The notes under the pieces are model-generated. The model worked only from the letters and a program-made list of their open reading frames with translations, did no database searches and was not told where the DNA came from. A stretch of 64,000 nt of DNA, taken from contig NW_027117346.1 of assembly GCF_038025025.1 (NCBI RefSeq), positions 930,001-994,000 on the forward strand. The letters are read 5' to 3'. Shown here piece by piece: positions 9,419-58,041 of this stretch. Both the position numbers and the translations under genes were made by a program. This stretch comes from Phyllosticta citribraziliensis (lineage: Eukaryota). The first letter of the stretch is position 1. Each line of letters opens with the position of its first letter.

Positions 9419-10485
9419 TTAGTTGGGGCAAGCGGCCTGGACGTGGCCGGGCTGCTTGCACTTGTAGCAAACCCTCTCGGCAGACGTCTCCGAGGGGCAG
9501 TCGCGAGACAGGTGACCAATCTCGCCGCCTGTGATTCAAGGTCAGTACGTCTTTGTGGCTCAGCTTGGATGCGAATTTTACTCACAGTTGTAGCACTTCT
9601 GGCCCTGGGTGCAGTCGCGAGACATGTGGCCGTAGCCGCCGCACGAGTAGCAGGTCTGACCACGGGGAGCACCAAAGGCACCACCACCGCCGTAGCCGCC
9701 ACCGTAGCCGCCACCGTATCCGCCGGCACCGGCACCGGCACCGTAGCCGCCGCCCTGCGTGCAGTTGCGGGCAATGTGTCCGACCTTGCCGCACTTGTAG
9801 CACTCTTGGCCGCCGCCAATGCCGGGAGCACCGCCCTCGGGGCACTCGCGGGAAAGATGTCCAATCTTGCCGCAACGGTAGCAAGGCTTCTCGGCCTGGG
9901 GCTCGCTGCACTCTCTGCTCAAGTGACCCTGCTGACCGCAGTTGTAGCAAGTCGGGGTGCCCTTGGTGGGGCAGTCGCGAGCTTGGTGGCTGACATCACC
10001 GCCTTCTCCAGGTTAGCATTGGCTCATGCGGGACTCTTGAGAGAGAATTCGGAACGTGACGACGAAGCCATAACGCCCGAGCCCTTGCGCGGAACGGACA
10101 AGGACAATGAAAGGCACGAGGTAGGAAAAGAGGTTGTAGATGCGCGTTCGTATGAACGAGAGATTGGGTTGAAGGCTCGAGTGGCCTGCTCGGTTCCCAC
10201 GCGATCGATCGACGACGTTGGCATTGGCGCTTGGAGCGCGAACACGACGACTCCAACGAGGATCAAAGACTTGTTCCGGATCGAGCAGCCCAAGAAAGCG
10301 TCCCCGCTGGAGGTGAGGCTTAACACGGGTTTGGAAAGGGGGAGGCGTGGGTTGTGCATGTGCTCGCAGGAATGTTTGGGCGGAGGGGCGAAGAGCCGTG
10401 GGCGGAGGGCGACCAGGACCCAACGTGTGTGAGAGGCAGACGTACAGTTGTAGCAGCCACGGGCAGGAGGAGCGCTGTAATCCAT
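9419..10485 (-). CDS. GIS2: CNBP/Gis2/Byr3-type zinc-knuckle nucleic-acid-binding protein
   Basis: Repeated CX2CX4HX4C knuckles (CYNCG, CYRCG, CYKCG, CYSCG) with a Gly-rich linker. Introns 10003-10445 and about 9529-9585, plus a probable 5'UTR intron at about 10519-10618. Confidence 0.92.
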
Positions 10486-43164: not shown

Positions 43165-43741
43165 GTCAATGCTGGTCGCCAATTGGTCGCGTTGCGGTTC
43201 CTCGGTGTGCCTATTTCAGCCGAGGCTTAGGGTAGCACAAGTGTTTGACGGCCAACGAACGCCCTACGTCACCGCCGACTCATCGAACTTCCGCACGTTT
43301 GATTCAGTACCACACAACGCTTGGGCTTTGCTTCTCGCCCTTCTCGTTGCAGCGTCAGATTCTCTTGCTGTACCATGCAATCCAGTCGTCTGCCAAACGT
43401 CCTGCTCCGCTTTCCCAATCTTCAGCCGATGCCGCTTTGCTATTGGCATGGCGGAATCTCCTGCGGCGCAGCTTAAGCGCCTCACCCACTATGATTGATC
43501 CCGTCATGGTCCATTGGTATCCGTTCGAGCCTAGTATGCTGCTTGTCCATTGCCTGGTTGGGCGGGCTTTGGCCCCAAGCGCGATGCGGTCTTGCCGCCG
43601 TGTTTACGCGCCCCTGTCTCAAGCATGGTCTGCGATATCTCGCACCAATGAGGCTCAGATTGAGCCAAGGCCAACTGGCATAAGAATCTCAGTGTCCAGC
43701 CTCGCGGATCTCTTGGTTCCAATTTCAACTCTTCCTCTACC

Positions 43742-46700
43742 ATGGATACAAAGCCAATTCCAGAGCTGTGGGCGCAGGCAAGAAAACTACTCCAGGAAGA
43801 GCTGGGTGAAGATGACTGGAGCCTTTTTACGTCCCAGTTGGATCCAAGTTCTCCAGGAGACGTCATCGATTCCCTCAAAAGAGTAAAGGACCAAGCTCAG
43901 AATGAGCACACCACTCACTCCCTAACAATCAAGGGCAAGAAAATCTTCGAGATTAACGTTAGCCGCATCGTGCAACGTTTCCAAATTCTTTCCCAAATGG
44001 TGGACTCGACAATCACTTTCGCACCCGAGCCCGCCCAAATCGTATGGACGACTCTCAAATTTCTCACCCAGTTCTTTCTGCAAGATGAACAGCTATGCAC
44101 ACTCGTTACCGCGACGTTCGAGAAAATATCTGATGCAATCTTCTTTTGCGACATATATGCTTCTCGACTCTCCAAAACGGCTTCTGTAATCACGAAGAAG
44201 GTTATGGAGAAGATTCCGCCCGTATACATGGCTGTCTTGCAATTCTCTGTCGAGACGAGAAAGCTCTTCCCACAAGAGAACAAGCACCGGCATTGGGACA
44301 CGACCATTCGCAGCATAAAGGGTGTGTTCGGCAAAACAGGTGAGCTTCATACGCTCGCCAACAAAGTCGACTCTGGGCTGCAGGAACTGCGCGAAATTGC
44401 CGGTTTATCGTCCCAAGTCTTGGTTGAAGATGGTGTGGGGGAAACAAATCTGAAGGTGAAGGAGATGACAGAGCTACTTCTTTCTGAGAAGGAAATACTT
44501 TCAGAGGAGCGATCAAAGGCAAGAGATGAGCGGGAGAAGAAGGTTCTCGACGAAAAGTACAGCAAAAGATTGAAGTGGTTACAATCTGGAACAGTGCTCG
44601 ACGTATCGCAACCTCGGCACCAACAGACGGAGAACATCAATGAACGGACTCCCGACACATGCCAGTGGATTTTTGACCACAACGATTATCAAGCCTGGGT
44701 TTCAGCCTCTGCTCCAGAAAAGCGCATCCTGTGGCTCCGGGGACCAGCTGGAGCTGGCAAGTCAATATTGTCGTCCTCTATCATCGAGAAAATGAGCACT
44801 CAATCAGCCGGTGTGGAGAGACCGCTCGTGGTGTATTTCTTCTGCAAAGTTGGCAATGATGCAAAACAAAACGGCCAAAAGATCATGCACCATCTCCTGC
44901 TTCAACTCTTCGAAAGAATCGGCGATGTGAATTCTACAAATGAGTCCAGCACCATTGATGAAGGAAACATCAAGAAGACCTGCGTTGATATCGTCCAGGC
45001 AAGAGCTAAGATGGAGGACTCCGGTCAGGCTGACAACCTCAAGATATCCACAACAGCCAGTATGTTTTCCGACATCGCAGGGTCTCTTACGCGCAAAGTT
45101 TTCATAATCCTGGATGCTTTGGACGAATGCATAGACTGGTCCGCGGCGGAGTCTAGGCTTCTTCAGTCGCTGATCGATATTACGTCGACCAATTCCAACG
45201 TCAGTCTTTTCATTTCCAGCCGCGCTGATGCCGACATTGAGAGGGCGTTCTCAATCCATGCGTGCCGCATCCACGTTGACAAGTCTACAAACAAGAAAGA
45301 CATCCGGAAATTACTGGATCATAAGCTCGGCCAGGAATGCTTCCGGCCCATTACCAGGGAAGACAAAAAGACAGCCAAGAAGAAGATCTTGGCAAAGAGT
45401 GAGGGAATGTTTCAATGTGAGTCACTTCTGCCCGATTCAGTGTAAATTTCATACGCAACTAACCAAGTCTAGACGCTGTGGTGGCTCTCCAATCCCTTAA
45501 CAGTGGAGAATCGATAGCGAACTTTTCAAGGGCCCTTGACCGGCTTCCACGTGGTATGAATCAGCTCTACGCAAGAAAATACCAATCACTGGAAGACGGA
45601 CCACGAAGCAATCTGTGCATCATTTTACGATGGCTTGTGTGCGCAGAAGGGGCCATTCAAGCTGCACCCATCGTTGACGAAATTGGCGAAATTTACAACG
45701 ACCGCGACAAACCAAAAGAATCACATGTGAACGGATTGGACGACTACGACGAATCCGACCAATCCGACGAGTTTCACGAATCCGAAGAAGAGGCTAGTAA
45801 TGAAAACAGCGGCAATTCCGATGCAAATCAGACAGCTGATGTGGCAGCTACTAGCATGAAGTTACTGATCAAGGACTTCCGCGACTTTGTGAAATTCGAC
45901 TCCCATACCAATGTAGTCAGTCTGCACCACAAGTCAATCAGAGACTGGATCATTGAAGACGCGAAATGTCCGAAAGTAGTTTCTGATTGTCATGTGTGTC
46001 GGGAACGGGATTTAGAAGATTCGGGCAAAACATTGCATATTGCGCCAAAACATGGCCATCTTCATATGGCGTGCAATATTTTGCGCACCCTCAACAATCC
46101 CGTGTTCCAGGAAGACTATGCCAAAGACAGAATCTACATGGAAGGGGAGGGGCTTCGATACGAGCTATCGCATTGGACCTTTCACGTTCGGACGGCAGAA
46201 CAGTATTGGCCGGAACAAGAACGTAGAAATGAAGACGTCGCCGCCAAATGGACCCAGCTTTATAAAGCTATTGAGGATTTCATGTCTTCGAAGATTTTTC
46301 CGAAATGGAGCGGTCAGCACCCACTGCACTTTGCTGCCCAGGAGGGACTGCTAGGAACTCTTCGAAGACTTGTTGATAAAGGGGGAAACCTCGGCAATTT
46401 GGACGCAAATGGTCGCAATTTGCTGCACATGGTATGCGCGGGGAGAGGGAACTACATTGGCCTTGAATATCTTCTCGAGAGAATGGACCCCCGCCATATC
46501 AACCTCCAACAACAATCCACCCGAGAGACGCCTCTGCATACCTTAATTCGCGACAGGCAGGGAGCGGTCAGAGTCACCAATCATGTTCAGCTCCTTCTCG
46601 AACATGGAGCAGATCCTGATTTGGGAGGCGGTTATGGGACCTGTCTCCTTCAGGCAGTGCGCCAAATGGATCTCGAGCTCTGCAGAACGCTGCTGGCGAC

Positions 46701-48701
46701 AAAAGAGCTAGATGTGGATAAACCGGACATCCCGAAGTCATCGAGTGGACTCTCCGCTCTACACTACGCACAATCCACTGAAGTAGCTCAACTTCTCATC
46801 GACCATGGCGCGGATATCCAGTTCCGAAACGAAGACAACCAGGATCTTCTTTTGACAGCAGCAATCACGGGAAACGTTCAGCTTGCACGCTTTTCCCTCG
46901 ATCGCGACGCCGATGTCAATGTCAAGTTAAGAAGCTCGGGACGAACAGCGCTCCATGAAGCTGTAATGGATGGCAACTTGACAATTACCCAGCTGCTTGT
47001 AAACCATTGTGCGGATATACTTGCAACGAACCACGAGGAGAAGAACCCAATTCATGTGGCTTCCACATTGGACTCCAAAGCTATCTTGGGGTATCTGCTC
47101 GAGCAGCAGAAAGTCAGATCCGACGACACTCGTTTCGTGCTGCTGGCAGACCGCACAAGACGGACTGCCTTGCACGAAGCTTCAGGAGCTGGGCACGTCG
47201 GAAACGTTCAATTGCTGCTGGAGTTTGGCCAGCCTGATGTGTTGTGCTCACAGAAAGACGACAACGGCCAGACTCCGTTACACGTAGCAGCTCGGGAAGG
47301 CCATGAAGATGTCATTCGACTCCTGGTGCAAAGCGACGCTCGTCTCGATTGTGTCGACGATTTTGGACAGACACCCCTTGGACTGACAATCGGTGAGTGG
47401 AACCTTTCGATGGGTGACTTAAAGGAGAGTCACGAAAGAATACTACTGTTTCTACTACCCCTGAGTCCAAAGATCATCCAAGAAGTCGAGCTCCTCGAAT
47501 TGGCAATCGAGAAGGGAGCGGGCAGCATATGTCGCCATCTGATTACGACCAGTCTGGCAAATGAGCCTGATGCTCATGGATGGACACCATTGCTTCTGGC
47601 AGTTCAACAGCAGGAGCAACACATCGTTGACACGCTGTCGCAATTCGATACTTCCGGTGTCCTTGAAAGGCTATCCGGCAGAGAAGACGCCGGAATTGGA
47701 TACCCTCCCACCGGGATAGATCCAAAATATGATAACGAATCGATCGCTATTTCCGGAGATGGACTGACATTGGACCTCGTCGGCAATGATGGTGAGGAAT
47801 CATATTTTCTCTGGGAGTCATGCTGACATCTTGACTTAGACACGTATTTTTGGGGCGATGGCTCTGCTTTCGCAGACCACCCGATTCCTGCTGGTATTTC
47901 CCGCTATTACTATGAGGTGGTATTCCAAGATGGTAATCACCCTGACAAGTAAGAAGCTCTTAGTCTGTTAATGGAGAGGGAAACTTTCACCTGGTGCGGG
48001 CAAAAACTGACGACGCCAAATAAAAGGGCCCCCTCATTACGGCTCTACTGTACCTGTGCGATCCCCTGCTCGCTGTTACGAACCTGTCCAGCCCCTCAAA
48101 GCCGCCGATCATACATTGCTGCCACCAACACCATCCACCCACGTCCAGGCTCGCGAACCCGCAAACTTCTCCCACCAGCCTCTGCCGCAATTGGCTTCTG
48201 CTCCCAATTCTCATCTCTAGAGCATTGGCTTCCAGAGGTGGAAAACAAAGCTTTCTCGCAGTGGGTGTACTATTGGGACAGGGGCAGATACCAGTTTGGC
48301 ACCAATGTGTCCGACCATTTCGAGGGCCAGGAAGGATTCGGCCACGGAGACGTTGTCGGTGCTGGCATCGATTTTTGCGAGCGCACGGTGTTCTTCACCA
48401 AGAATGGTAAAAGACTTGGTAAGTCAGAAGTCATCTCAGCACTGAATTTGAGTTGTTTTGCGTGCCATACATGTTCAAGTCTCAACTTGGTCATTGGGAG
48501 GATCTTTTCATACACAGACTTGAAATGTTTTCATTCTCAAACCAAAAGATTGAGAAGTTGCTAATCTATTTTGTCAAAATAGAGGGTGAATTCCACGGTG
48601 ACCAGGTGAAAGGTCGCCTGTTCCCAGTCATTGGAATGAATGGTTTCAAGGTGCGAGTGAACTTTGGCGCTGAGCCGTTCAAGTACAATTGGTTGCCATG
48701 A
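43742..48701 (+). CDS. Fungal NLR: helical N-terminal domain - NACHT - ankyrin repeats - SPRY
   Basis: PDTCQWIF, Walker A LWLRGPAGAGKS, VYFFC, Walker B FIILDALDEC. About 9-10 ankyrin repeats (HPLHFAA, GRTALHEA, GQTPLHVAA, GWTPLLLA). SPRY motifs ADHPIP..YYYEV, FGHGDVVGAGID, FFTKNG, LFPVIG, NFGAEPF. Introns 45417-45472, 47792-47840, 47949-48026, possibly 48050-48178, and 48419-48582. Confidence 0.92.
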
Positions 48702-48999
48702 TCACCCACATTCAAGAGGCACCTCGTGCGGTCTGGAGCCAGTGGAGCTGGAAAGCGTCGAGGGTGGCTTACGCTACTCGGTGACGAATGTCGCGGTAGT
48801 GGGACATCAAAACTTGGCGACCAGATAGAGCGCGGGTAGGGAGCATTCGTTCGCTCCAACAGAAGATGGGTGACAGGGAGCTGGGAGCATTCAAGATTCA
48901 GTTAACGGCAAGCTGCTCGATAACATCAGCAACTCAAATTCCCAACCAGCAAGAAGACCTTGTCCAATAGAAGGTTTTGATGGCTGACTTTCCCCTCCT

Positions 49000-50528
49000 C
49001 TACACATAAGCGAGCATGAGTTCTTCGCCCCGTGAAACAACGCAGCTATCTATCACTTTCACGACGACTCTCTCGGCGCCCTTCCACGTGAAAAACTTCA
49101 GTTCGAGATTGCTGCACTGATCGCACGTCGTATATCGAAGGTACCTGGTCCAGTTTCCTGCAACAGCGCGTCAGCACCACGTTAACAAAGCGATGCTCCC
49201 TCTGAGCTATGCCCGTACCTTCGGAGTCTTGGGAGATCTGATAGATGACCTCACGACGGCAGACATTCAACGCGCGGGGGTACTCCTCGATGTCCTTCCC
49301 GAACGTCACGAGCCCGATGAGCTCGGCGATGATGCTGCCGCCGCGAAAGCATTGCAGTGCCTTTACGGAAAGGGTTGAAGGTTCGACTTCCACGATGTTG
49401 ACGCTGCTGTCCTTAGGGAAGATGATGGAGGAGAGGCATTGGCAATACATCTCGTCATCGCGCGCGTCCGGCTCCTCCGACTGCTCCCGGTAGCAGACGT
49501 CGCAGACGTAGAATTCCGCAGTGTACTGCTGCCGCGGGTCTTCGTCCGGCCACACGGTCCTGTCGACGCGCGACTCGTTGGTGTAGCGGAACGGAGCCTT
49601 GTGGCGCAGCATCTCGACGATTCCCCAGCGGCTGAGGTAGAACTGGTCGTTGCGTAGGGCGGCTGGCGTCGTTGGCAAGGGCTTGCTGTCGGAGGGTGGT
49701 GGTTTGCTCAAGTATTGACCGCTTCCAAAGTGTGCGGGGTTTCGAGGACGTGACGCTGTGACTCTCTCGAGATTTGACATCGTCCTGCAAGGCTCTGAGA
49801 TGATTCCGTCCTCTGAATCAGTAGAGTCTTCGACTGCGGCCTCGTCTTCGACTACGACCTCGTCTTCGGCTGTGACCTCATTTTCGACTGAGACCTCGTC
49901 TTCGCTGGGAGATGGAGGTTGTTCAGGAACGCTCGGTGGACCACGGCGGGGTGGCTGTTCAGGACCTGGCGGGGGCTGCTGAGGCACGCTTGGTGGTTGC
50001 TCAGGAGGTGGCCCACGACTCGGGGGCTCGGATGGGATGGTTGGGAGACGCGGGTCAGGAAGGCTGACGGTGACTTCAGGAGGGTCGGCGGTGCTTTCAG
50101 GAGGTCTGGCGGTGACTTCCGGAGGGCTGGCGGGGGCTTGAGAAGACTCGCGGATGAAGGCGTCTGGAGCAAAGAGCTCGTCGTGGTCACCTTCATAATC
50201 CAGCGGAGTCAGAGCGACCTACAAAGGCAGGCAAGTAAGCGCAAGTCTCGAAGCATCCAGCTTCGCCGCGGGAAAGCCCAAAGCCACTCACCAAGACATC
50301 CGTATGGTGTTGTCCTTCGGGGCCTTCGATGGCGACGGCCAAGGCGATGCGCGAGACGTCGTGGCCGTCTTCGGCGACGTAGCGTAGGACTTCTCGAAGG
50401 GTCTGGACGGCACCAGGGTTGATTGAAGCACGGCCGACTTGGCCAGATACTACCAGATCCAAGGCTTCTTCGAGAAGCTGGAGCGCAGGCCCCAGAATTG
50501 TCGCATTTCCCGTGGGCTGGTCAGACAT
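49000..50528 (-). CDS. Degenerate SET-domain protein with Pro/acidic repeat linker
   Basis: Three exons (introns at about 50219-50291 and 49158-49218). CDVC...CQC, VKALQCFRGGSIIAELIGLV, GNWTRYLRYTTC, terminal GEELMLAYV*. Confidence 0.75.
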
Positions 50529-50566
50529 TTGAAGCGGTGGTCAGGGTTGGGCGTCGGAGGAAATGT

Positions 50567-50592
50567 GGGGGGGGGGGGGGGGGGGGGGGGGG
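50567..50592 (+). repeat. G26 homopolymer about 40 bp upstream of the SET gene start
   Basis: 26 consecutive G. Confidence 0.95.
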
Positions 50593-50615
50593 CAACGTGT
50601 AGAGGAAGTGTCTGC

Positions 50616-50760
50616 GTGAGTCGCAAGATGTTGAAGTGAATGCTGGCTGTGCTGCGGCGTGTTGAGGAGTGCTCGGCGTTTAGAAAAAGTGTTTAAGTGA
50701 CTCGCAAGATGTTTACAGTAATTCTGGAAGTACGGCGGCGTGTGAGTGACTGCTCGGCGT
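50616..50760. repeat. Imperfect direct duplication, 81-bp period
   Basis: GTGA(G/C)TCGCAAGATGTT at 50616 and 50697; GCGGCGTGT and TGCTCGGCGT repeated at about the same offset. Confidence 0.75.
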
Positions 50761-51064
50761 CATATTGAGCACTGCGCAGTGCGCTAAGAACTGCTCGACA
50801 ATCAGAGGAAGCATTAAAAGAGTCGCAGAATCTCTACGGTTCATCAAGTCACGACAGAATCATAAAAGCAGGGGGGTTTTCACTGTGGTTTGGATACTTC
50901 CTGCGTCCTACTTCCCATCTCAAAGTGTCCCCAGCAATGATCCCCTGATTATGTGTTCTCCGATACACACGAGTCTCCGTTCGCCGTTGCTGAAGCCACA
51001 CCTCCATCAGTGTCTCCCACGGTAGTCGTAGATGCCGGGCGAGACCTTTGCTCGTCTGTCGATT

Positions 51065-52462
51065 TCAAGTGCCGTTGCGGCCTTTTCCACCAACACCTGC
51101 TTGGAGCTTGCTGGCTTCAACGTCGTGATGACCAACGAAACCATCGCGACCCTCCTCGTACTCAACCACGTCCATCAGATTGTCAATGAGGTCGGACAAA
51201 TTCAGAGCGTTGAGCCTCTTCTTGCTGTGGGGATGCATCTCATAGTTCAGCTTGCTGATCAGGGCCTTCTTGGCCGAGACTGGATCCCACCCGGCCCTCT
51301 GAGTCAGACTGACAAACTCGGTGACGAATTCTCCAAGCGGGCGGTTGTCTTGCTGCATGAACTCGAGCTTGGTTCGAGCGGCGTGGAGCTTGTCGCGAGT
51401 GTCGAAAAATTTGTCGAGGCATTGGACAACTTCAACAGACGACTTGGGGACAGCGGCGCCGGGTCGATTTATGAAAATCGACAGGGCCTGTCCTCGAAGT
51501 CGTGTCATGATGTAAGCCGCTTTGTCTTCCTCAAGACCAAGGCGTTTGTCGAAGTCCAACTTGACCTTGAGCTGGTATCGCCAGGCCTCATATTGACTTC
51601 TGTCACCCTCGAATTCGGGAATGTCGGGGATTGGAGACGTAAGGTTTTCGCTGGCAACGGCGGTAGGGGCGGATTGCTGTTGAGCCTGGAGGGCGCTGAC
51701 GACTGCTGCTTCGATGTCTTTCTTGAAATCATCCTTGGTTGCGTACATGGGATGCTCCGCATGATCGTCGATGTCCGTGTTCTCTCTCAAGTAGTCTTGA
51801 CTATGAGCAGCATCTCCAGTCGTGATTTCCTCGGTGATATGGGGTACGATGGTAATGGTCTTGGGGACCTTGATGAGTCGCGCCTCGTCCTTGGCTTCGC
51901 TGATGATGGAAGCAAGCGTAGAAGTCTGAGATTGGCACCAGTTGTTTCGCTTGACGGCGCACCAGTACTCGAGGGAGTCTGACAGATCGTCGAGTAGGAA
52001 GAGACATGCAATGTTGTCTTCAACCTTCCAACCAGCAACAGTTCGACAAAGTTTCACTTGATGCTCAAAGGCGTCGATGTACTCGCTGATGGAGCCATAG
52101 TCGGCAGGCTTGATGTGTCGGAGGCCATTGATGGTCGCAATCTTTGACTGCAAGCTGGGCTGATCGAACAACTGGTGGAGCCTGTCCCAAATCTCCTTGG
52201 CGGTAGTATGGTGGTTGGCAAGCTGCTCTCTCACCTTTTGAGAGCAGTTGCTGTAGAGTAAGGACATGACAACGGCGTCTCTGTGCCTCCATTCCTTTCG
52301 CTGGACGGGATTCACGCCATAGGGAAAACTTCCGGTCAAATGCTCTTCGTTGTCCATGGCCTTGACGTGGAGCTCCACGGTTGTCTTCCAAGAGGCCCAA
52401 TCAGCTCCATCTTTGAGCTCTGGGACGTTGGCCTGCGGATGGCCGTCCAGAGACGGAGCCAT
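51065..52462 (-). CDS. Stand-alone retrotransposon-derived protein: copia-type Gag fused to gypsy-type Gag (465 aa)
   Basis: Domain 1: PELKDGADWASWKTTV..EHLTG..WRHRD..TAKEIWDRLHQLF..SISEYIDAF..FLLDDL. Domain 2: PDIPEFEGDRSQYEAW..KAAYIMTRLRGQA..ARTKLEFMQQDNRPLGEFVTEF..AGW. Intronless; no pol. Confidence 0.8.
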   Translation of the reverse strand: MAPSLDGHPQANVPELKDGADWASWKTTVELHVKAMDNEEHLTGSFPYGVNPVQRKEWRHRDAVVMSLLYSNCSQKVREQLANHHTTAKEIWDRLHQLFDQPSLQSKIATINGLRHIKPADYGSISEYIDAFEHQVKLCRTVAGWKVEDNIACLFLLDDLSDSLEYWCAVKRNNWCQSQTSTLASIISEAKDEARLIKVPKTITIVPHITEEITTGDAAHSQDYLRENTDIDDHAEHPMYATKDDFKKDIEAAVVSALQAQQQSAPTAVASENLTSPIPDIPEFEGDRSQYEAWRYQLKVKLDFDKRLGLEEDKAAYIMTRLRGQALSIFINRPGAAVPKSSVEVVQCLDKFFDTRDKLHAARTKLEFMQQDNRPLGEFVTEFVSLTQRAGWDPVSAKKALISKLNYEMHPHSKKRLNALNLSDLIDNLMDVVEYEEGRDGFVGHHDVEASKLQAGVGGKGRNGT

Positions 52463-52585
52463 GATGGCAGAAGCGTTGGTGAGAGGATGAACGAGGTTGT
52501 TAAGAGTTGAAGGGGAAAGTGACGATTGGGGTGTTTTATTTTGCACGTCGTTTGTGGCCCGGCGTCGGGTCGGCTTGGTGCCGGA

Positions 52586-52720
52586 GGATGGGTTTGGGAA
52601 GGAAAGAACGGAACAACTGCCTTGAGACTCCTCAGGTCTAGCTACCCGCACAGCAGCGAATGAACGCTCCCTGGGCGGACTTGTACTGCTAGGGGGTCTA
52701 ATTTCTTTCGACACCCACTG
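52586..52720. mobile_element. Putative MITE, copy 2 (left TIR degenerate)
   Basis: The 20-bp ATTTCTTTCGACACCCACTG (52701-52720) is identical to 11481-11500. Also shares TGAGACTCC, GGTCTAG, CAGCAG.GAA, GCTCCCT, TGTACT and TGCTAGG.GGTCT in the same order. Confidence 0.6.
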
Positions 52721-52748
52721 TGCCTCTTACTTCTTACGTGCCTGCCCA

Positions 52749-55202
52749 TTACAGCCTCTTGACGTCGCCCACACTCCACTGCTCATACGCCTCCACCATC
52801 TCGGCTGTAATCCTCTTGGGCACCTTCTCCAGCGCAGCTTCGAAATCCGCCGACTCGACGCACGGAATTCCAGTGTCTTTCCTCTCGATCCGGCGTCTCA
52901 ACCTCGTCCTCGCCGCTTCTGCACACACCTCCACAATCTCAGCACCGCTGTATCCTTCCAGTCTCTCAGCCAGCACATCCAGGTCCACATCGTCTCCCAA
53001 TGGCCTCCTGCGCATTCCGGCAACGTTCAGAATCTGTCTGCGGGCTTCCAAACCAGGCGGTCCGACGTATAGAATGGCATCGAAGCGACCAGGGCGCATG
53101 AGAGCAGGGTCAAGAATCTCCGGCCGGTTGGTTGCAGCAAGGACGAGCACACCCTTCAAACTCTCGATGCCGTCCATCTCATTGAGGAGTGTTGTCAAGA
53201 CATTCATGCCGGACAAGTGCGAGCCGGACGTCCTGCTAGCAGCAATGCTGTCGATCTCGTCAAAGAACAAGATGGAGGGCGACGCGGCACGAGCCTTGCT
53301 AAAGACGTCGCGCACGGCACGTTCAGTCTCTCCAACGTACATGGATGTCAGCTCCGCGCCTTTGACGGCAAGGAAATTGAGCGACGACTCGGTAGCAATG
53401 GCTTTGGCGCACAGAGTCTTGCTGCAGCCCGGTGGTCCATACAGCAGGATTCCTCGCTGCGGTTGGAGATCGAGAGCGTCCATGTCATCTGCGTAGCGGT
53501 AGGGCCATTCGGTGACTTCACGCAGGGCTTGCTTGACGCTGTCGGAGCCGCCAATGTCTGACCAGCGAACCTTGGGGGTTTCGAGGAATACTTCGTTCAT
53601 CGCTGTCGGGCGCACTTGGAGAAGAGCGGCTTCGAAGTCCTCGAGTTTCACTTGGGCAGGCTCCCGGTACACGAAATCTTCGTCATCGAGTTCAATCTCA
53701 ACGGGCTCCTGGGCGGCCTCTTGCTCCTGCCGCTGCTTTTGAGTGTCGTCGTCCTCCTGTTCTTGAATCTTCATGGCATCGAGCGATTGCTCGAGGTCAT
53801 CGGCTGATGAATGCTTCTCCTGCTCGAAAAACCTATCCACTGCTCTTTTGAGTGCCTTTTTGTAAAGGGCCGCGAGATCTCGACCTACAAAGCCGTGGGT
53901 TCTGCCGCCGATTTCGTCCGCAACCCAGTCACGGATCGGCCAGTCCTGGTCCTGGAGCACCTTGAGAATCTCGACACGGGCTCCAGATTCGGGCACCGGG
54001 ACTTCGATCTCATCTGAAAAGTGTTGTGGGGTTCTCAGGGCAGGGTCAACATTGACCAGTTTGGTGGTAGTGCCCACAACCATGACACGGGCCGTTCCCA
54101 GTTTCTCTATCTCCGCCGCAATGCATCCTGCTAAGCTCACTCTGGAAGAAGCACCATCTTCGATCCGGGGGGCGAAATTCTCGAGTTTTTCGAAAACGAG
54201 TAGACTTGGCTGGGCCTTGACGGCCTCGTCAAATGCTTTGCGTAAAGCGCTATGGCTCTTTTCGGATGACCCAGCCGGTTCTTCCACATTGATGACTTTG
54301 CGCCATGGTGCTTCGCTCAGTCGACGCAAGAGTAAGCTCTTTCCGGTACCAGACGGACCATGAATTAGAACCCCTGTGCTGGTATTCAGAATAGTCGGAT
54401 ATTTTTGACGGCGCAGGGTGTTGGTAAGGGTTGTCAGGCGTTGATTGAGCTCCAAGACCTGGCGGTGCAGTCCGCCGATGCCCTCGGCGCTCATTTCAAA
54501 CTTGGTGGGCTCTTGTGCAGTCGTCGTGGACACAGCTTGGCCTGCTTCAAGAAGGCAGACCTCGCTCTTGTAGTCGCAATAGTACGGCACATGGGGTTCC
54601 TCGGCTGGAGGCTCGACCTGGCTGACTACAAAGCGTACTTTTCGACCAGACCGAGGGTGTGTGACTGCAAACGTCCCGTTTGGAAGGACAGCATCAAGAG
54701 ACCCTGCGAGAATTGAATAAGAGAAAGGACTGGATAAGGGCACGCGGGATAGAGACACGGAAACAAGGGACTTTCAAATTGCAGAGGTCTGCTTACACAA
54801 TGCTACTTTGGCTAGCAATTCCAAAGCCTCCTTGGGCAGCCTGATGCTTCCAGGCTCCAGCTCTTGGATATGAAGTTTTTGGGCATGGCGCAGTCTCTGC
54901 GGTTCAAATTTGGAAACGGTGACCTTGTCTTCCAGTTTCAGACCAAACAGGTCCTTCAGGGGCTCTTCTATGAAGGCAATGCGGTTCTGGTCCTTTGGGT
55001 CGGCCTTGGTATTCCAGGCCACGCCTACGGCTTTGGGGTTTCCATTGGGCTGATCAAGGAGGCAGTAGTCGCCAACTTCGAGACCCAGAGACTTGAGGTT
55101 TTTCATGGACATCAAGACCCTCAGACCGCCTGCGTCCAGGGCGCGGGGCGGCGTGGAGGCCTTGGCCGAGGCCCAGCGGAGGCGGAATGGAGAAATATCC
55201 AT
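52749..55202 (-). CDS. AFG2: AAA+ ATPase Afg2/Drg1 (SPATA5) family
   Basis: Two AAA modules: GPSGTGKS and GILLYGPPGCSKTLCAKA; VKGAELTSMYVGETER, FFDEID, LLNEMDG, ALMRPGRFD; intron at about 54708-54795. Confidence 0.88.
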
Positions 55203-55612
55203 GTCGGGGGGGCTGGCACGGTGGGAGGGGGAGCGGGAGCGGTCGTGGGCGTGGTCGAACTTTTTTTTTTTTTTCCAGATGTGGTGGGAGTTGACCAGTC
55301 AGAGCCAATCAACGGGCTCAGAATTTGCACTGATCAGCCCCTCGTTGACGTCGGTCTCGGGCGTCTCCAGATCAGCTCAGAGTCAGGGACAGGAGAGTCA
55401 GAGCTTCCGGTTGCCCTGGGTGGCCGCTCTCCGTCGCTCCCCGCCCGTCCGTCCGTGCTCGGGCGCTCGGGCCGAGTGAAGCTCCCGTCGTGCCGCCCCC
55501 GTGTCCGCATCTCCAGCAAGCCCAGCTTGACGCGACTCTCCAAGCAAACTGACCTCCCACGCTTTCCACCTGGCCCGATTTGGCCCAATACGCCCTTCCT
55601 CCGCCTCAACCC

Positions 55613-58041
55613 ATGCCGCCAACTCGGCAGCTACCCTTGGATTCTCTCCATCCTCTATCAATCGCCCTACGGAACTGCCTCGGCATCACCGATCGTCGCC
55701 TGCTCACCCGAGCTCTCCACGTTTCTCCAAGAACCTCTCCAGACGTGCGGCGCGTCGTGTACTCTAGCAAAGAAAACGGTCCTGGGGAGGAACTTCCCCA
55801 AATCGCGTCTGCACAAGGCCGCAGGATATCCCGACTGGCGCAATTGGATGAGGAGTTTGTCAAAATCGTGGAAAGAGGGCCTCGCGCATCGCCGACTGCA
55901 GGAAACTACAGCGAGAGGCGCCGACGGCTGACAGGTGCTCAATCAGATACGCAGAGCTCGCATGAAGCGGAGACCGTGGAAACAACGGAAAAGCGCTCTC
56001 GAATAATAGAACCAGGAGCGCCGCTTAGCTTGCAGCAACCGATTGGACAAAGTACGGGAGATGACGAGAAGCGCGGCATGTCTTCGTGGTCTCCCGAGTT
56101 GCTCAAAGAGACACCGAAAGGGCAGAGTCCGAGTCCGAGCCCTCATGTACAAGTCGACATGATGGAGAAGCAAGATTGGACTGGAATCTCGTACAACGAG
56201 GCCATGCAAAACCTCGACATTGAGCAAGTATCAGCTACGACTGAAGATCCAGTCGTACTAGATCAGGTCGCAAGGACGTTGCGCCAGAGCAACGAAGAAG
56301 CATTCCAGGACAAATCCATTCTCGGAACACAAACGGAAGTGGCAGATAGTTCAGGTGAACAGGGAGCTGCTCAGGCGTCTGAGTACCGTGGTCGAGATTT
56401 GGAAGTCGAAGAGGTTGTACAGCAGGATCAGCCTCCGCAGCTGCGTTTGGAGAAAGGGCAGCACACTACCACTGTGGAAAATCAAGGCGGCCTGCTAGCG
56501 GCCCTGTTTCCTGAAATGAGCGGCGCACCAGATACTGAGAACCGAACCGTCGAGCAACAAGAGGAAGCGGATGCCCTGGAAATCCCAGGAGGACTGGTGG
56601 CTGCAATGTTTCCCGATTTGACAGAATCATCGGAAAACGAGAACAAGGCCGTTGAAGACGACCCCAATGAACTATTGGACATGTTGTTCCCCGAACTCAG
56701 TACAAAGCAATCCAAAGCCGAGCGAACACCCACAAAAACTAGCCCGGATTCGAAAGAGGACCCGGGAAGTGGAGTAGGAAAGTTTAAGTGGTCATTCCCT
56801 GAAGAGACTTGGGGGCGAAATGGGCAGCTTCCACAGGCCATCCTGCAGCAGAAATCTGCAAGAATGAATTCTGACCAGAAGTCGACAAAGAAACCCAAGG
56901 ACACAGTGAAAGTCAAAAGAGACTCGAAACCGGTCGATGACTCTGGGACAACAAAAGAGCCAGTTGACCGCAACTTGAACTACCATGACGTTGTTCCAGA
57001 GAATCTGCTCGAGGAACTCTTCCCGGAAGAGTCCAAGACGCAGAGCAAAATGGAGGTGGCCAAACGACGAGAATTTGAGGTTCCGAAAATGAGACTCGAC
57101 TTGGCAGCAGGGCCTCAGCTGAGACACTACATCCGCTCTGGGGAGATCAAAACCCCACGACAAGAACATACCTGCATCGTTAATCTGCAAGCCGTCAGTC
57201 CTCGACTGACCGAAGAAGACATTCGAGGCCTGCTCCCACCCACAATGCACATTGAGGGCTGGAGCTCCGAGTACATAAAAAGTGAGCCACGCCCGTCTTT
57301 CCTTTCTCGCCTTTGCTGACTCCTCTAGCTATCCCAATACGTGACCCAACCACGCTCGCTCGAAAGGACGCGTACAATATTCTCTTTCGCAGCGCATACG
57401 GCGCTCTAGACTTCCAAAAGCGCTTACGCAGGCTACACGACATTCTCTTCAAACAAGCACCAACATCAATGCTCTCGCCGCGCACACATCCACTCAGCCT
57501 GACGGACCCCGAAACGGGCGAAAACTTCAGGGCATCGCTTAAGCTGTACACACTGGGGCCGCCAAGCCAGCGCGGCAACGTCTACGCGAAGGTCCTGGGC
57601 GAGCCATGGCCGCACGAAACGGCGCGCCTGGTACACAATGGCGGGTATCCGCAGGTCATGGACCTCGCGCCCGGCATCGCCGCCAAGGTGCTGCTGCACT
57701 TTGACGGCATGCAGCCCACCAAGTACGAGATCGTCGACGCCATCCGCGCCGATGGCCACGACCGCGGCGTCCCCTGGGACATACCCGGTGGCCACAACGG
57801 CGGGCCCACCGTCGTGGCTGGCGTGGTGCAGCTGAGCACGGCGCGTCGAGACGACGCGTATTCGGATACGTCTGCCCTTATGCGCAAGTTGCCGCCGAGG
57901 TGGCTGATCAGTTTTCGGTCCAAAGCTGAGGCGCATCGTTTCGTGAGGAGGTGGCATCGGAGGCCTTTTCCGTGGCAGCCTAAGGAGTATAGTGAGTATG
58001 GCGAGGATCTGCCTACGGTGAGGGCTGAGGTGCTGTGGTAG
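55613..58041 (+). CDS. Fungal hypothetical protein (possible mitochondrial presequence; acidic disordered middle; RRM-like C-terminus)
   Basis: Long ORFs joined by an intron at about 57282-57328 (GTGAGC..GCTGAC..TAG); C-terminal IPIRDP.TL...YNILF and RWLISF...EAHRFVRRWHRRPFP. Confidence 0.75.

Follow-up and report, generated by a model that had tools for sequence, protein, structure and literature searches.

A tandem gene for a copia-type and a gypsy-type capsid, probably domesticated, in a filamentous ascomycete

Can the capsids of two superfamilies of retrotransposons with long terminal repeats (LTRs) come to be joined in one host gene, and what might such a protein do? The question is raised by the 64-kb stretch of DNA analysed here (the window, to whose positions all coordinates refer), in which a single intact open reading frame (ORF) of 465 amino acids runs from ATG to TGA on the minus strand at 51065-52462. 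Its product, P0001, is a complete copia-type capsid (CA) fused in frame to a complete gypsy-type CA, and there is good reason to regard the ORF as a domesticated tandem-capsid gene in a filamentous ascomycete. As a whole, the data are best explained by a host-resident, gag-derived tandem-capsid gene, a reading to which a probability of roughly 0.55 may be attached; that its product is directed at retrotransposon particles is a more tentative proposal. To our knowledge, the known domesticated capsid genes (animal Arc, PNMA and PEG10, yeast Drt2, and the fungal copia and Bel-Pao cases) each stem from one lineage. A conserved and expressed protein made of complete capsids from both superfamilies would amount to a test, set up by nature, of how compatible such capsids are, and it raises the questions of whether bispecific lattice poisoning is possible and whether relatives by fold only can work as one unit.

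A sequence-only reading of the window had described an intact, intronless ORF of 465 amino acids with a copia-type Gag pattern in its N-terminal half, a gypsy-type capsid pattern in its C-terminal half and a linker of about 80 residues between them. Its coordinates and its ATG and TGA codons proved correct, no joint lies inside the ORF in RNA contigs, and both Gag patterns were borne out, the first by the Pfam family PF14223 and the fold of Copia, the second by the match in a homologue (P0002), by relatives, by a family profile that finds PEG10 and Ty3 Gag, and by the fold. The linker does separate the two modules but is not all spacer, since its residues 237-262 are 73% conserved with P0002. 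The parts of the gene are as follows, with model confidence given as the predicted local distance difference test (pLDDT).

51065..52462, minus strand: whole gene, unspliced 465-amino-acid ORF P0001, with its stop codon at 51065-51067; RNA contigs show 0 differences and no joint inside.
52163..52408, minus strand: N-terminal lobe of the copia-type capsid, residues 19-100; model helices H22-35 to H88-100, pLDDT about 90; 8vvw_A is aligned with model residues 10-201.
51866..52156, minus strand: C-terminal lobe of the copia-type capsid, residues 103-199; chains of the Ty1 CA C-terminal domain (CA-CTD)/p22 match at Z 10.0-10.5; PF14223 covers residues 53-170.
51635..51865, minus strand: junction or linker, residues 200-276 (about 77 amino acids), of which 200-236 are poorly conserved, with indels.
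51677..51754, minus strand: conserved linker segment, residues 237-262, the DPMYATKDDFKKDIEAAVVSALQA region; 73% identity to P0002.
51140..51634, minus strand: gypsy-type capsid, residues 277-441, divided into an N lobe (about 277-353) and a C lobe (about 355-441); PF03732 at 320-402; pLDDT 87.4.
51068..51139, minus strand: short C-terminal tail, residues 442-465, without zinc knuckle and poorly conserved.
52463..52748, minus strand: 286-bp spacer between this gene and the stop codon that ends the AAA-ATPase gene upstream of it; an RNA contig crosses it.

Relatives of this protein were sought with phmmer among 1.84 billion representative sequences, which returned 181 hits at E <= 1e-3, the best 150 of them listed, and a half-by-half search took in 152 proteins, P0001 and P0002 among them. 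The N-half is matched by 24 of these proteins and the C-half by 130 (P0001 and P0002 being counted in both), and only two of the 152, P0001 and P0002 themselves, are matched by both halves. With regard to the N-half, the expected family Retrotran_gag_2 (PF14223) was found at residues 53-170 with 46.3 bits, above its cutoff of 27; PF03732 obtains no more than 14.4 bits over that stretch. PF14223 is also present in 20 of the 22 N-only relatives, some of which additionally carry DUF4219, Retrotran_gag_3, a CCHC zinc knuckle or the copia domain Pol_BBD. Compared with solved structures, the N-family profile finds the Copia virus-like particle protein with an E value of 5.8e-31 and Ty3 with one no better than 0.3. 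The two halves were folded separately; a MAFFT alignment of full-length proteins had put copia-type relatives on the C-half. The model of residues 1-210 (pLDDT 89.4) consists of ten helices in two lobes and resembles the Drosophila Copia capsid 8vvw_A with a VIA Z of 13.6, 183 of 184 residues aligned and a Foldseek E of 3.8e-5, and its C lobe (103-199) matches Ty1 CA-CTD/p22 at Z 10.0-10.5 with a root-mean-square deviation (rmsd) of 2.3-2.5 over 89-91 aligned residues.

The identity of the C-half requires a longer argument. PF03732 (Retrotrans_gag) is the only Gag family matched there, as had been expected, but the half alone scores 19.4 bits at residues 320-402 and stays under the cutoff of 24.1. 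The whole-protein score for PF03732, 30.1, is made up of two stretches, the best located at 320-402 and the other probably the weak 14.4-bit match in the N-half. As the C-half lies below the Pfam cutoff, its gypsy-type assignment is drawn from the homologue, the relatives, the family profile and the fold. PF03732 scores 39.3 bits in one stretch of P0002, and phmmer relatives of the C-half reach E 6e-19. Among the C-only relatives that were scanned (24 of 128), PF03732 is present in 16, Ty3_capsid in 4, CCHC in many and PF14223 in none. The C-family profile finds the PEG10 CA-CTD at 7.5e-15 and Ty3 Gag at 2.8e-8 among solved structures, with no Copia chain among the best 60 of its 190 matches. 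The model of residues 251-465 has a pLDDT of 87.4, and its best Foldseek matches are the capsids of PNMA2 and dArc1 at E 1e-3 to 4e-3 (for PNMA2, E 1e-3 and TM 0.58-0.60). By VIA, matches to Ty3-type folds span Z 8.2-11.8, among them the PEG10 CA-CTD at 11.8, the Arc C-lobe at 9.8, the dArc1 capsid at 9.0 (rmsd 3.4, 155 aligned) and Ty3 at 8.7. Copia, at 9.7, lies within these ties, so that fold alone gives no separation of gypsy from copia, and the superfamily of the C-half would appear settled by the sequence evidence. The structural expectation of two pairs of capsid lobes is borne out, both modules being two-lobed in the separate half models.

It might be asked whether one half arose from the other. 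Internal duplication as the origin of the halves was ruled out: BLASTP of the N-half against the C-half gives E 0.18, and the profiles of the two families align at 98% probability with an identity of only 8%. Judged from these comparisons, the two halves appear to have an ancient capsid fold in common, with no recent duplication. The sequence-only reading had itself named the finding of one Gag family in both halves, or of none, as grounds for giving it up, and the halves were found to match different Gag families. A related complication is that PF14223 and PF03732, families with a remote kinship to each other, both match one and the same capsid in 4 of the 22 copia-type relatives (P0011, P0089, P0101 and P0135). 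Since both Pfam names can thus fall on one capsid, position and independent evidence are needed to claim two. A plant cluster in the ESM Atlas with PF14223 at 100% and PF03732 at 76% was considered and rejected as a second tandem protein, because the profiles can share one capsid; the best score in that atlas was 0.89, with no cluster at 0.9.

The homologue P0002, of 467 amino acids, is 58% identical to P0001 over 97% of the length, and each of its two domains exceeds the Pfam cutoff. Both frames are intact and have the same ends, and the indels between the two are all in frame. Identity is distributed over P0001 as follows.

Residues 1-18, N-terminal tail: 45% identity, 7 gap columns.
Residues 19-198, copia capsid: 61% identity, 1 gap column.
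Residues 199-236, rest of the linker: 39% identity, 7 gap columns.
Residues 237-262, linker segment: 73% identity, 6 gap columns.
Residues 278-445, gypsy capsid: 64% identity, 0 gap columns.
Residues 446-465, C-terminal tail: 36% identity, 6 gap columns.

All but one of the gap columns fall outside the two capsid modules, and conservation focused on the modules in this way, which is a pattern of identity and not a value of the ratio of nonsynonymous to synonymous substitution (dN/dS), points to purifying selection on both capsids. Residues 255-263 of the linker were modelled as a helix, at a low confidence (pLDDT about 60). Farther afield, a word-based search at E <= 1e-3, which is weak evidence, gave no longer (815-2325 amino acids) or shorter (30-254 amino acids) relatives; a protein-pattern scan of metagenomes gave 594 pattern matches with 0 confirmed, and a metagenome scan with the back-translated 12-residue motif common to P0001 and P0002 gave 0 matches.

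Is the gene expressed, and is it at home in this place? Contigs of four public runs, which give neither expression level nor transcript ends, were compared with window positions 48500-56000. In a 3222-nt contig of run X1 (organism A), positions 54704-54796 are missing; read on the minus strand they form an intron (GTAAGC...CAG) within the AAA-ATPase gene, and because one contig lacks this spliced-out intron the run contains RNA. Its contigs cover 50872-55354 minus that intron, with 0 differences from the window, and the two that span the ORF (50872-52069 and 52040-54702) have no joint inside it. Coverage without a joint indicates that the tandem-capsid gene is transcribed and unspliced, and the expression that the sequence-only reading had proposed to look for is documented by full coverage of the ORF, again with 0 differences, in a run containing spliced RNA. 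In run X3 (organism B) there are 17 differences in 575 nt over 51491-52065, an identity of about 96-97%. One X3 contig links the beginning of the downstream gene with the 3' end of the ORF, none of the seven listed X3 indels falls inside the ORF, and depth per contig is 74-83 on the ORF vs 70-83 on its flanks. The locus is common to a second organism, one close relative, with the same downstream gene, and upstream synteny is suggested by the spacer indels.

The surroundings of the ORF contain little that could mobilise it. The sequence-only reading had noted no CCHC knuckle, protease, reverse transcriptase or integrase, and this was confirmed: Pfam finds none of the three enzymes in P0001 or in 14 flanking ORFs (about 30.7 to 64 kb), and P0001 has no C-x2-C-x4-H-x4-C motif, its six cysteines lying at 73, 139, 153, 168, 176 and 348. 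Copia Gags place a zinc knuckle after the capsid, where the linker of P0001 is without one and relatives have CCHC, and P0001 has no basic tail for nucleic-acid binding either. Between 44000 and 60000 there is no direct or inverted repeat of at least 25 nt able to be an LTR, the only repeats found being one of 18 nt in coding sequence and a tandem pair of 81 nt. Elsewhere in the 64-kb window the 152 Gag-like proteins have a single match, 18 amino acids long, to the zinc knuckle of an unrelated ORF (9896-9949). The tight placement between host genes that had been described was likewise found, with the stop codon of a two-domain AAA-ATPase gene 286 bp upstream and the next ORF 536 bp downstream; spacers of this length leave no room for LTRs, and the upstream one must contain the 3' end of the AAA-ATPase gene plus the promoter and 5' untranslated region of the tandem-capsid gene. 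The composition of the ORF (GC 0.54, GC at third codon positions 0.65, TpA/ApT 0.34, (CpA+TpG)/(ApC+GpT) 1.34) is inside the range of eight neighbouring genes for GC, third-position GC and both indices of repeat-induced point mutation (RIP), and there is no RIP signature. Lacking LTR, pol and CCHC, the tandem-capsid gene is not a transposon now.

What, then, could the protein do? The sequence-only reading had suggested, as hypotheses, a dominant-negative inhibitor, a decoy or a particle scaffold. A single unspliced mRNA codes for a 465-amino-acid protein with two complete CA modules of different origin; gone are the zinc knuckles of the two nucleocapsids, every pol function and the LTRs. Capsid modules serve to form homotypic CA-CA contacts. 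If each module keeps the CA-CA contact surfaces of its own superfamily, the tandem protein might enter or cap the growing Gag lattices of copia-type and of gypsy-type elements, and the bulky foreign module together with the missing RNA-binding knuckle would make such mixed assemblies dead ends. The outcome would be a two-headed form of the lattice poisoning known from Ty1 p22 and Drt2. It is the combination of contact surfaces of two superfamilies, no RNA packaging and a foreign domain that would make the protein best suited to join and terminate Gag lattices. By analogy with these yeast factors, a bispecific capsid-lattice poison acting on retrotransposon particles can be put forward as a tentative proposal. 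Somewhat more doubtful is the wider formulation of a two-headed capsid protein that serves either as a bispecific restriction factor or as a heterotypic copia-gypsy shell, and that would be the first natural mixed tandem capsid of Pseudoviridae and Metaviridae.

Several results weigh against a host-resident gene of this kind, beyond the sub-cutoff Pfam score and the non-discriminating fold of the C-half. The family is narrow, with P0002 the only full-length homologue among the best 150 of the 181 hits, and among the same hits the transposon-type Gags nearest to either half are 26-34% identical, either because the targets are unsampled or extinct or because the function has moved on. Drt2, by the account available from the accessible part of its description, is 91.5% identical to its target and specific to a subfamily (PMC13709905). 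Pieces of the gene also recur elsewhere. P0003, an uncharacterised protein from Phyllosticta citribraziliensis, shows 85% identity over residues 336-408 before passing into unrelated sequence; the shared stretch corresponds to 51239-51457 of the window and codes for part of the gypsy-type C lobe. A 409-nt contig of X1 has 51239-51375 as its sole match, shows 10 differences there and breaks off where P0003 does; since X1 contains the full gene alongside this partial contig, P0003 is a paralogous partial copy and not an orthologue. Two further proteins, P0024 and P0106, contain short fragments closest to P0002 inside otherwise unrelated predicted proteins, and in P0106 one conserved W and one conserved L are replaced. 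Finally, contig breaks, loose ends and depth spikes occur at 52009-52074 in X1, X2 and X3, with a joint in X3 that goes back 66 nt. This suggests that a further, highly represented locus shares with this gene some 60 nt (52009-52069) that code for part of the copia C lobe, the alternative being an in-frame duplication of 22 codons in organism B. Of the host co-option that the sequence-only reading had proposed, transcription, the same downstream neighbour, a host-like composition and the conservation of the modules speak for it; a single copy is not supported, as there are partial copies elsewhere.

These partial copies are also what gives some substance to the explanation that the gene was never domesticated, and is instead the gag, still open by chance, of an LTR element that has decayed, is nested or is non-autonomous, with copia inserted in or next to a gypsy gag, or else a gag-only element mobilised in trans, in which case its conservation would reflect selection for transposition. 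The occurrence of such copies at other loci and in other genomes, the very narrow taxonomic range and the fact that the nearest outside relatives of both halves are ordinary transposon Gags would all fit. Such an origin is nevertheless improbable, as LTR-like repeats are absent between 44000 and 60000, the 286-bp and 536-bp spacers are too short for them, no pol lies nearby and the composition is host-like without a RIP signature. In addition, organism B has the same downstream neighbour and an ORF depth (74-83) like that of the flanks (70-83), two intact ORFs have been maintained at 58% identity with in-frame indels only, all but one gap column of which lie outside the modules, and both knuckles needed for replication have been lost. 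The comparison with P0002 bears in the same way on the thought that only one module of a domesticated gene is functional and the other a decaying passenger, a spacer or a solubility domain. No observation favours this directly; it would be the simplest outcome of a chance fusion, and the C-half is indeed weaker than the N-half against Pfam; the two modules are, however, equally conserved (61% and 64%, with 1 and 0 gap columns), unlike the linker and tails at 36-45% with indels, and both are modelled at high confidence, which leaves a single working module the least probable of the possibilities considered.

A different matter is whether a domesticated tandem-capsid protein would block particles or build them. 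In the manner of Arc, PNMA2 and PEG10, it may instead assemble with itself into a shell or lattice in which the tandem CA serves as a built-in pseudo-dimer, for cargo or as a compartment. The best full-length structural matches of the modules include assembled capsids (Copia, PNMA2, dArc1 and Ty3), and a low identity to transposon Gags would suit a function independent of any transposon partner. We know of no tandem-CA shell, the protein lacks both a zinc knuckle and a basic tail for nucleic-acid binding, and its distribution is very narrow, so that self-assembly, although the main alternative, is held to be unlikely. In its favour, both modules are complete two-lobed capsids, and the known fungal lattice poisons, as described in the accessible text on Drt2, consist of the C-lobe only (PMC13709905). 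For a host-resident, gag-derived gene as such, the arguments remain those of transcription, position, composition and even conservation of the two modules.

The neighbourhood of the gene offers some further observations. Nearby host genes comprise a NACHT-ankyrin NLR, a SPRY-domain ORF, and genes for a choline-transporter-like protein, a thioesterase, RRP36 and an alpha/beta hydrolase. Two of these lie downstream of the tandem-capsid gene, as does a repeat-bearing ORF, and the following sites were recorded around it.

43664-47826, plus strand: NLR-type gene with NPHP3_N/NACHT followed by ankyrin repeats, about 3.2 kb downstream of the tandem-capsid gene.
47953-48564: SPRY-domain ORF, about 2.5 kb downstream of the tandem-capsid gene.
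49808-49897: a tandem array of four 18-nt units within an ORF (49046-50218, minus strand) that matches no Pfam family; an 18-nt insertion in organism B, at 49913, would fit one further unit immediately beyond the array.
49265-50556: an unspliced RNA contig, although the ATG-started ORFs there form three pieces.
50557-50757: a poly-C run of about 26 nt and then two 81-nt tandem copies (73% alike), within the spacer that lies upstream of the next gene; in organism B a joint going back 67 nt looks like a different repeat number.
52670-52722: some 50 nt that follow closely, downstream, on the stop codon of the AAA-ATPase gene; contig depth is raised 10-20x over the surroundings in X1 and X3 and several-fold in X4 and X2, and either side has numerous different loose ends.

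The last of these may represent a short repeat with dispersed copies or an element that is widely shared; no second copy of it is found in the 64-kb window, and Rfam gives no match, as is the case for the whole of 50400-53000.

How does this gene compare with known systems? No described fusion of a copia and a gypsy Gag was found in the literature covered, most subscription journals and the domain-architecture databases being outside that coverage, so that independent fusions may exist elsewhere, and a tandem capsid of mixed ancestry in a domesticated gag gene was not found described. Co-opted gag genes have been reported in fungi, namely Crtg12 and Crtg13 (copia) and Crtg14 (Bel-Pao), and the accessible parts of this 2021 survey report no gypsy-derived fungal case and no two-capsid gene (Wang and Han 2021, PMC8321522). 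As far as their descriptions there go, Crtg12 and Crtg13 are, like P0001, fungal, LTR-less, single-locus, gag-derived, expressed and conserved, they are copia-type as is the N-half, and they belong to Dothideomycetes, the class of Phyllosticta, which is the only named relative of P0001 (PMC8321522). They differ, by description only, in being single copia-derived gags for which the accessible text mentions no gypsy-type capsid, and the range of Crtg13 (Pleosporales plus Mytilinidiales) appears far broader than that of the tandem-capsid gene (PMC8321522). With respect to the cases in the available text of that survey, the present gene would add a Ty3/gypsy-derived co-option to the fungal repertoire beyond copia and Bel-Pao (PMC8321522), and, if it were a true restriction gene, it would provide a handle on the control of retroelements in filamentous fungi besides RIP and RNA silencing.

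The closest functional parallels come from Saccharomyces, where Ty1 p22/p18 and the endogenised Drt2 poison lattices as Gag-derived proteins, according to the portion of the work available (PMC13709905). They resemble P0001 in being Gag-derived and without a zinc knuckle, and Drt2 also in being expressed from a fixed locus, in so far as that portion describes them (PMC13709905). Their structures (7nlg, 7nli and 9rxy) superpose on the C lobe of the N-half at Z 7.8-10.0 with an rmsd of 2.3-2.5. In the same accessible account p22 and Drt2 are C-lobe-only fragments of about 170 amino acids, roughly 90% identical to one target subfamily (PMC13709905), in contrast to P0001 with its two complete capsids of two superfamilies, at most 34% identical to transposon Gags among the matches listed.

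Such a low identity has a precedent outside fungi. The mouse host gene Fv1 derives from a Gag and restricts retroelements that are no more than distant kin of the one it came from, and, given this precedent, restriction is compatible with a low identity to the target. Unlike P0001, Fv1 consists of a coiled coil and one CA-like domain, and it acts on incoming retroviral cores. It is mentioned in the accessible part of the Drt2 work as well (PMC13709905).

At the level of the single modules, Drosophila Copia Gag (8vvw, 8s41) is like the N-half over its whole length, and differs in belonging to an active element with knuckle and pol, whereas the copia-type capsid of P0001 ends before the knuckle and is fused to a foreign capsid. 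Arc/dArc1, PNMA2 and PEG10 have the same two-lobed fold as the C-half, PEG10 being related to it also by sequence profile (7.5e-15); they are animal genes with a single capsid module, in contrast to P0001, which is fungal and carries a copia-type capsid in front.

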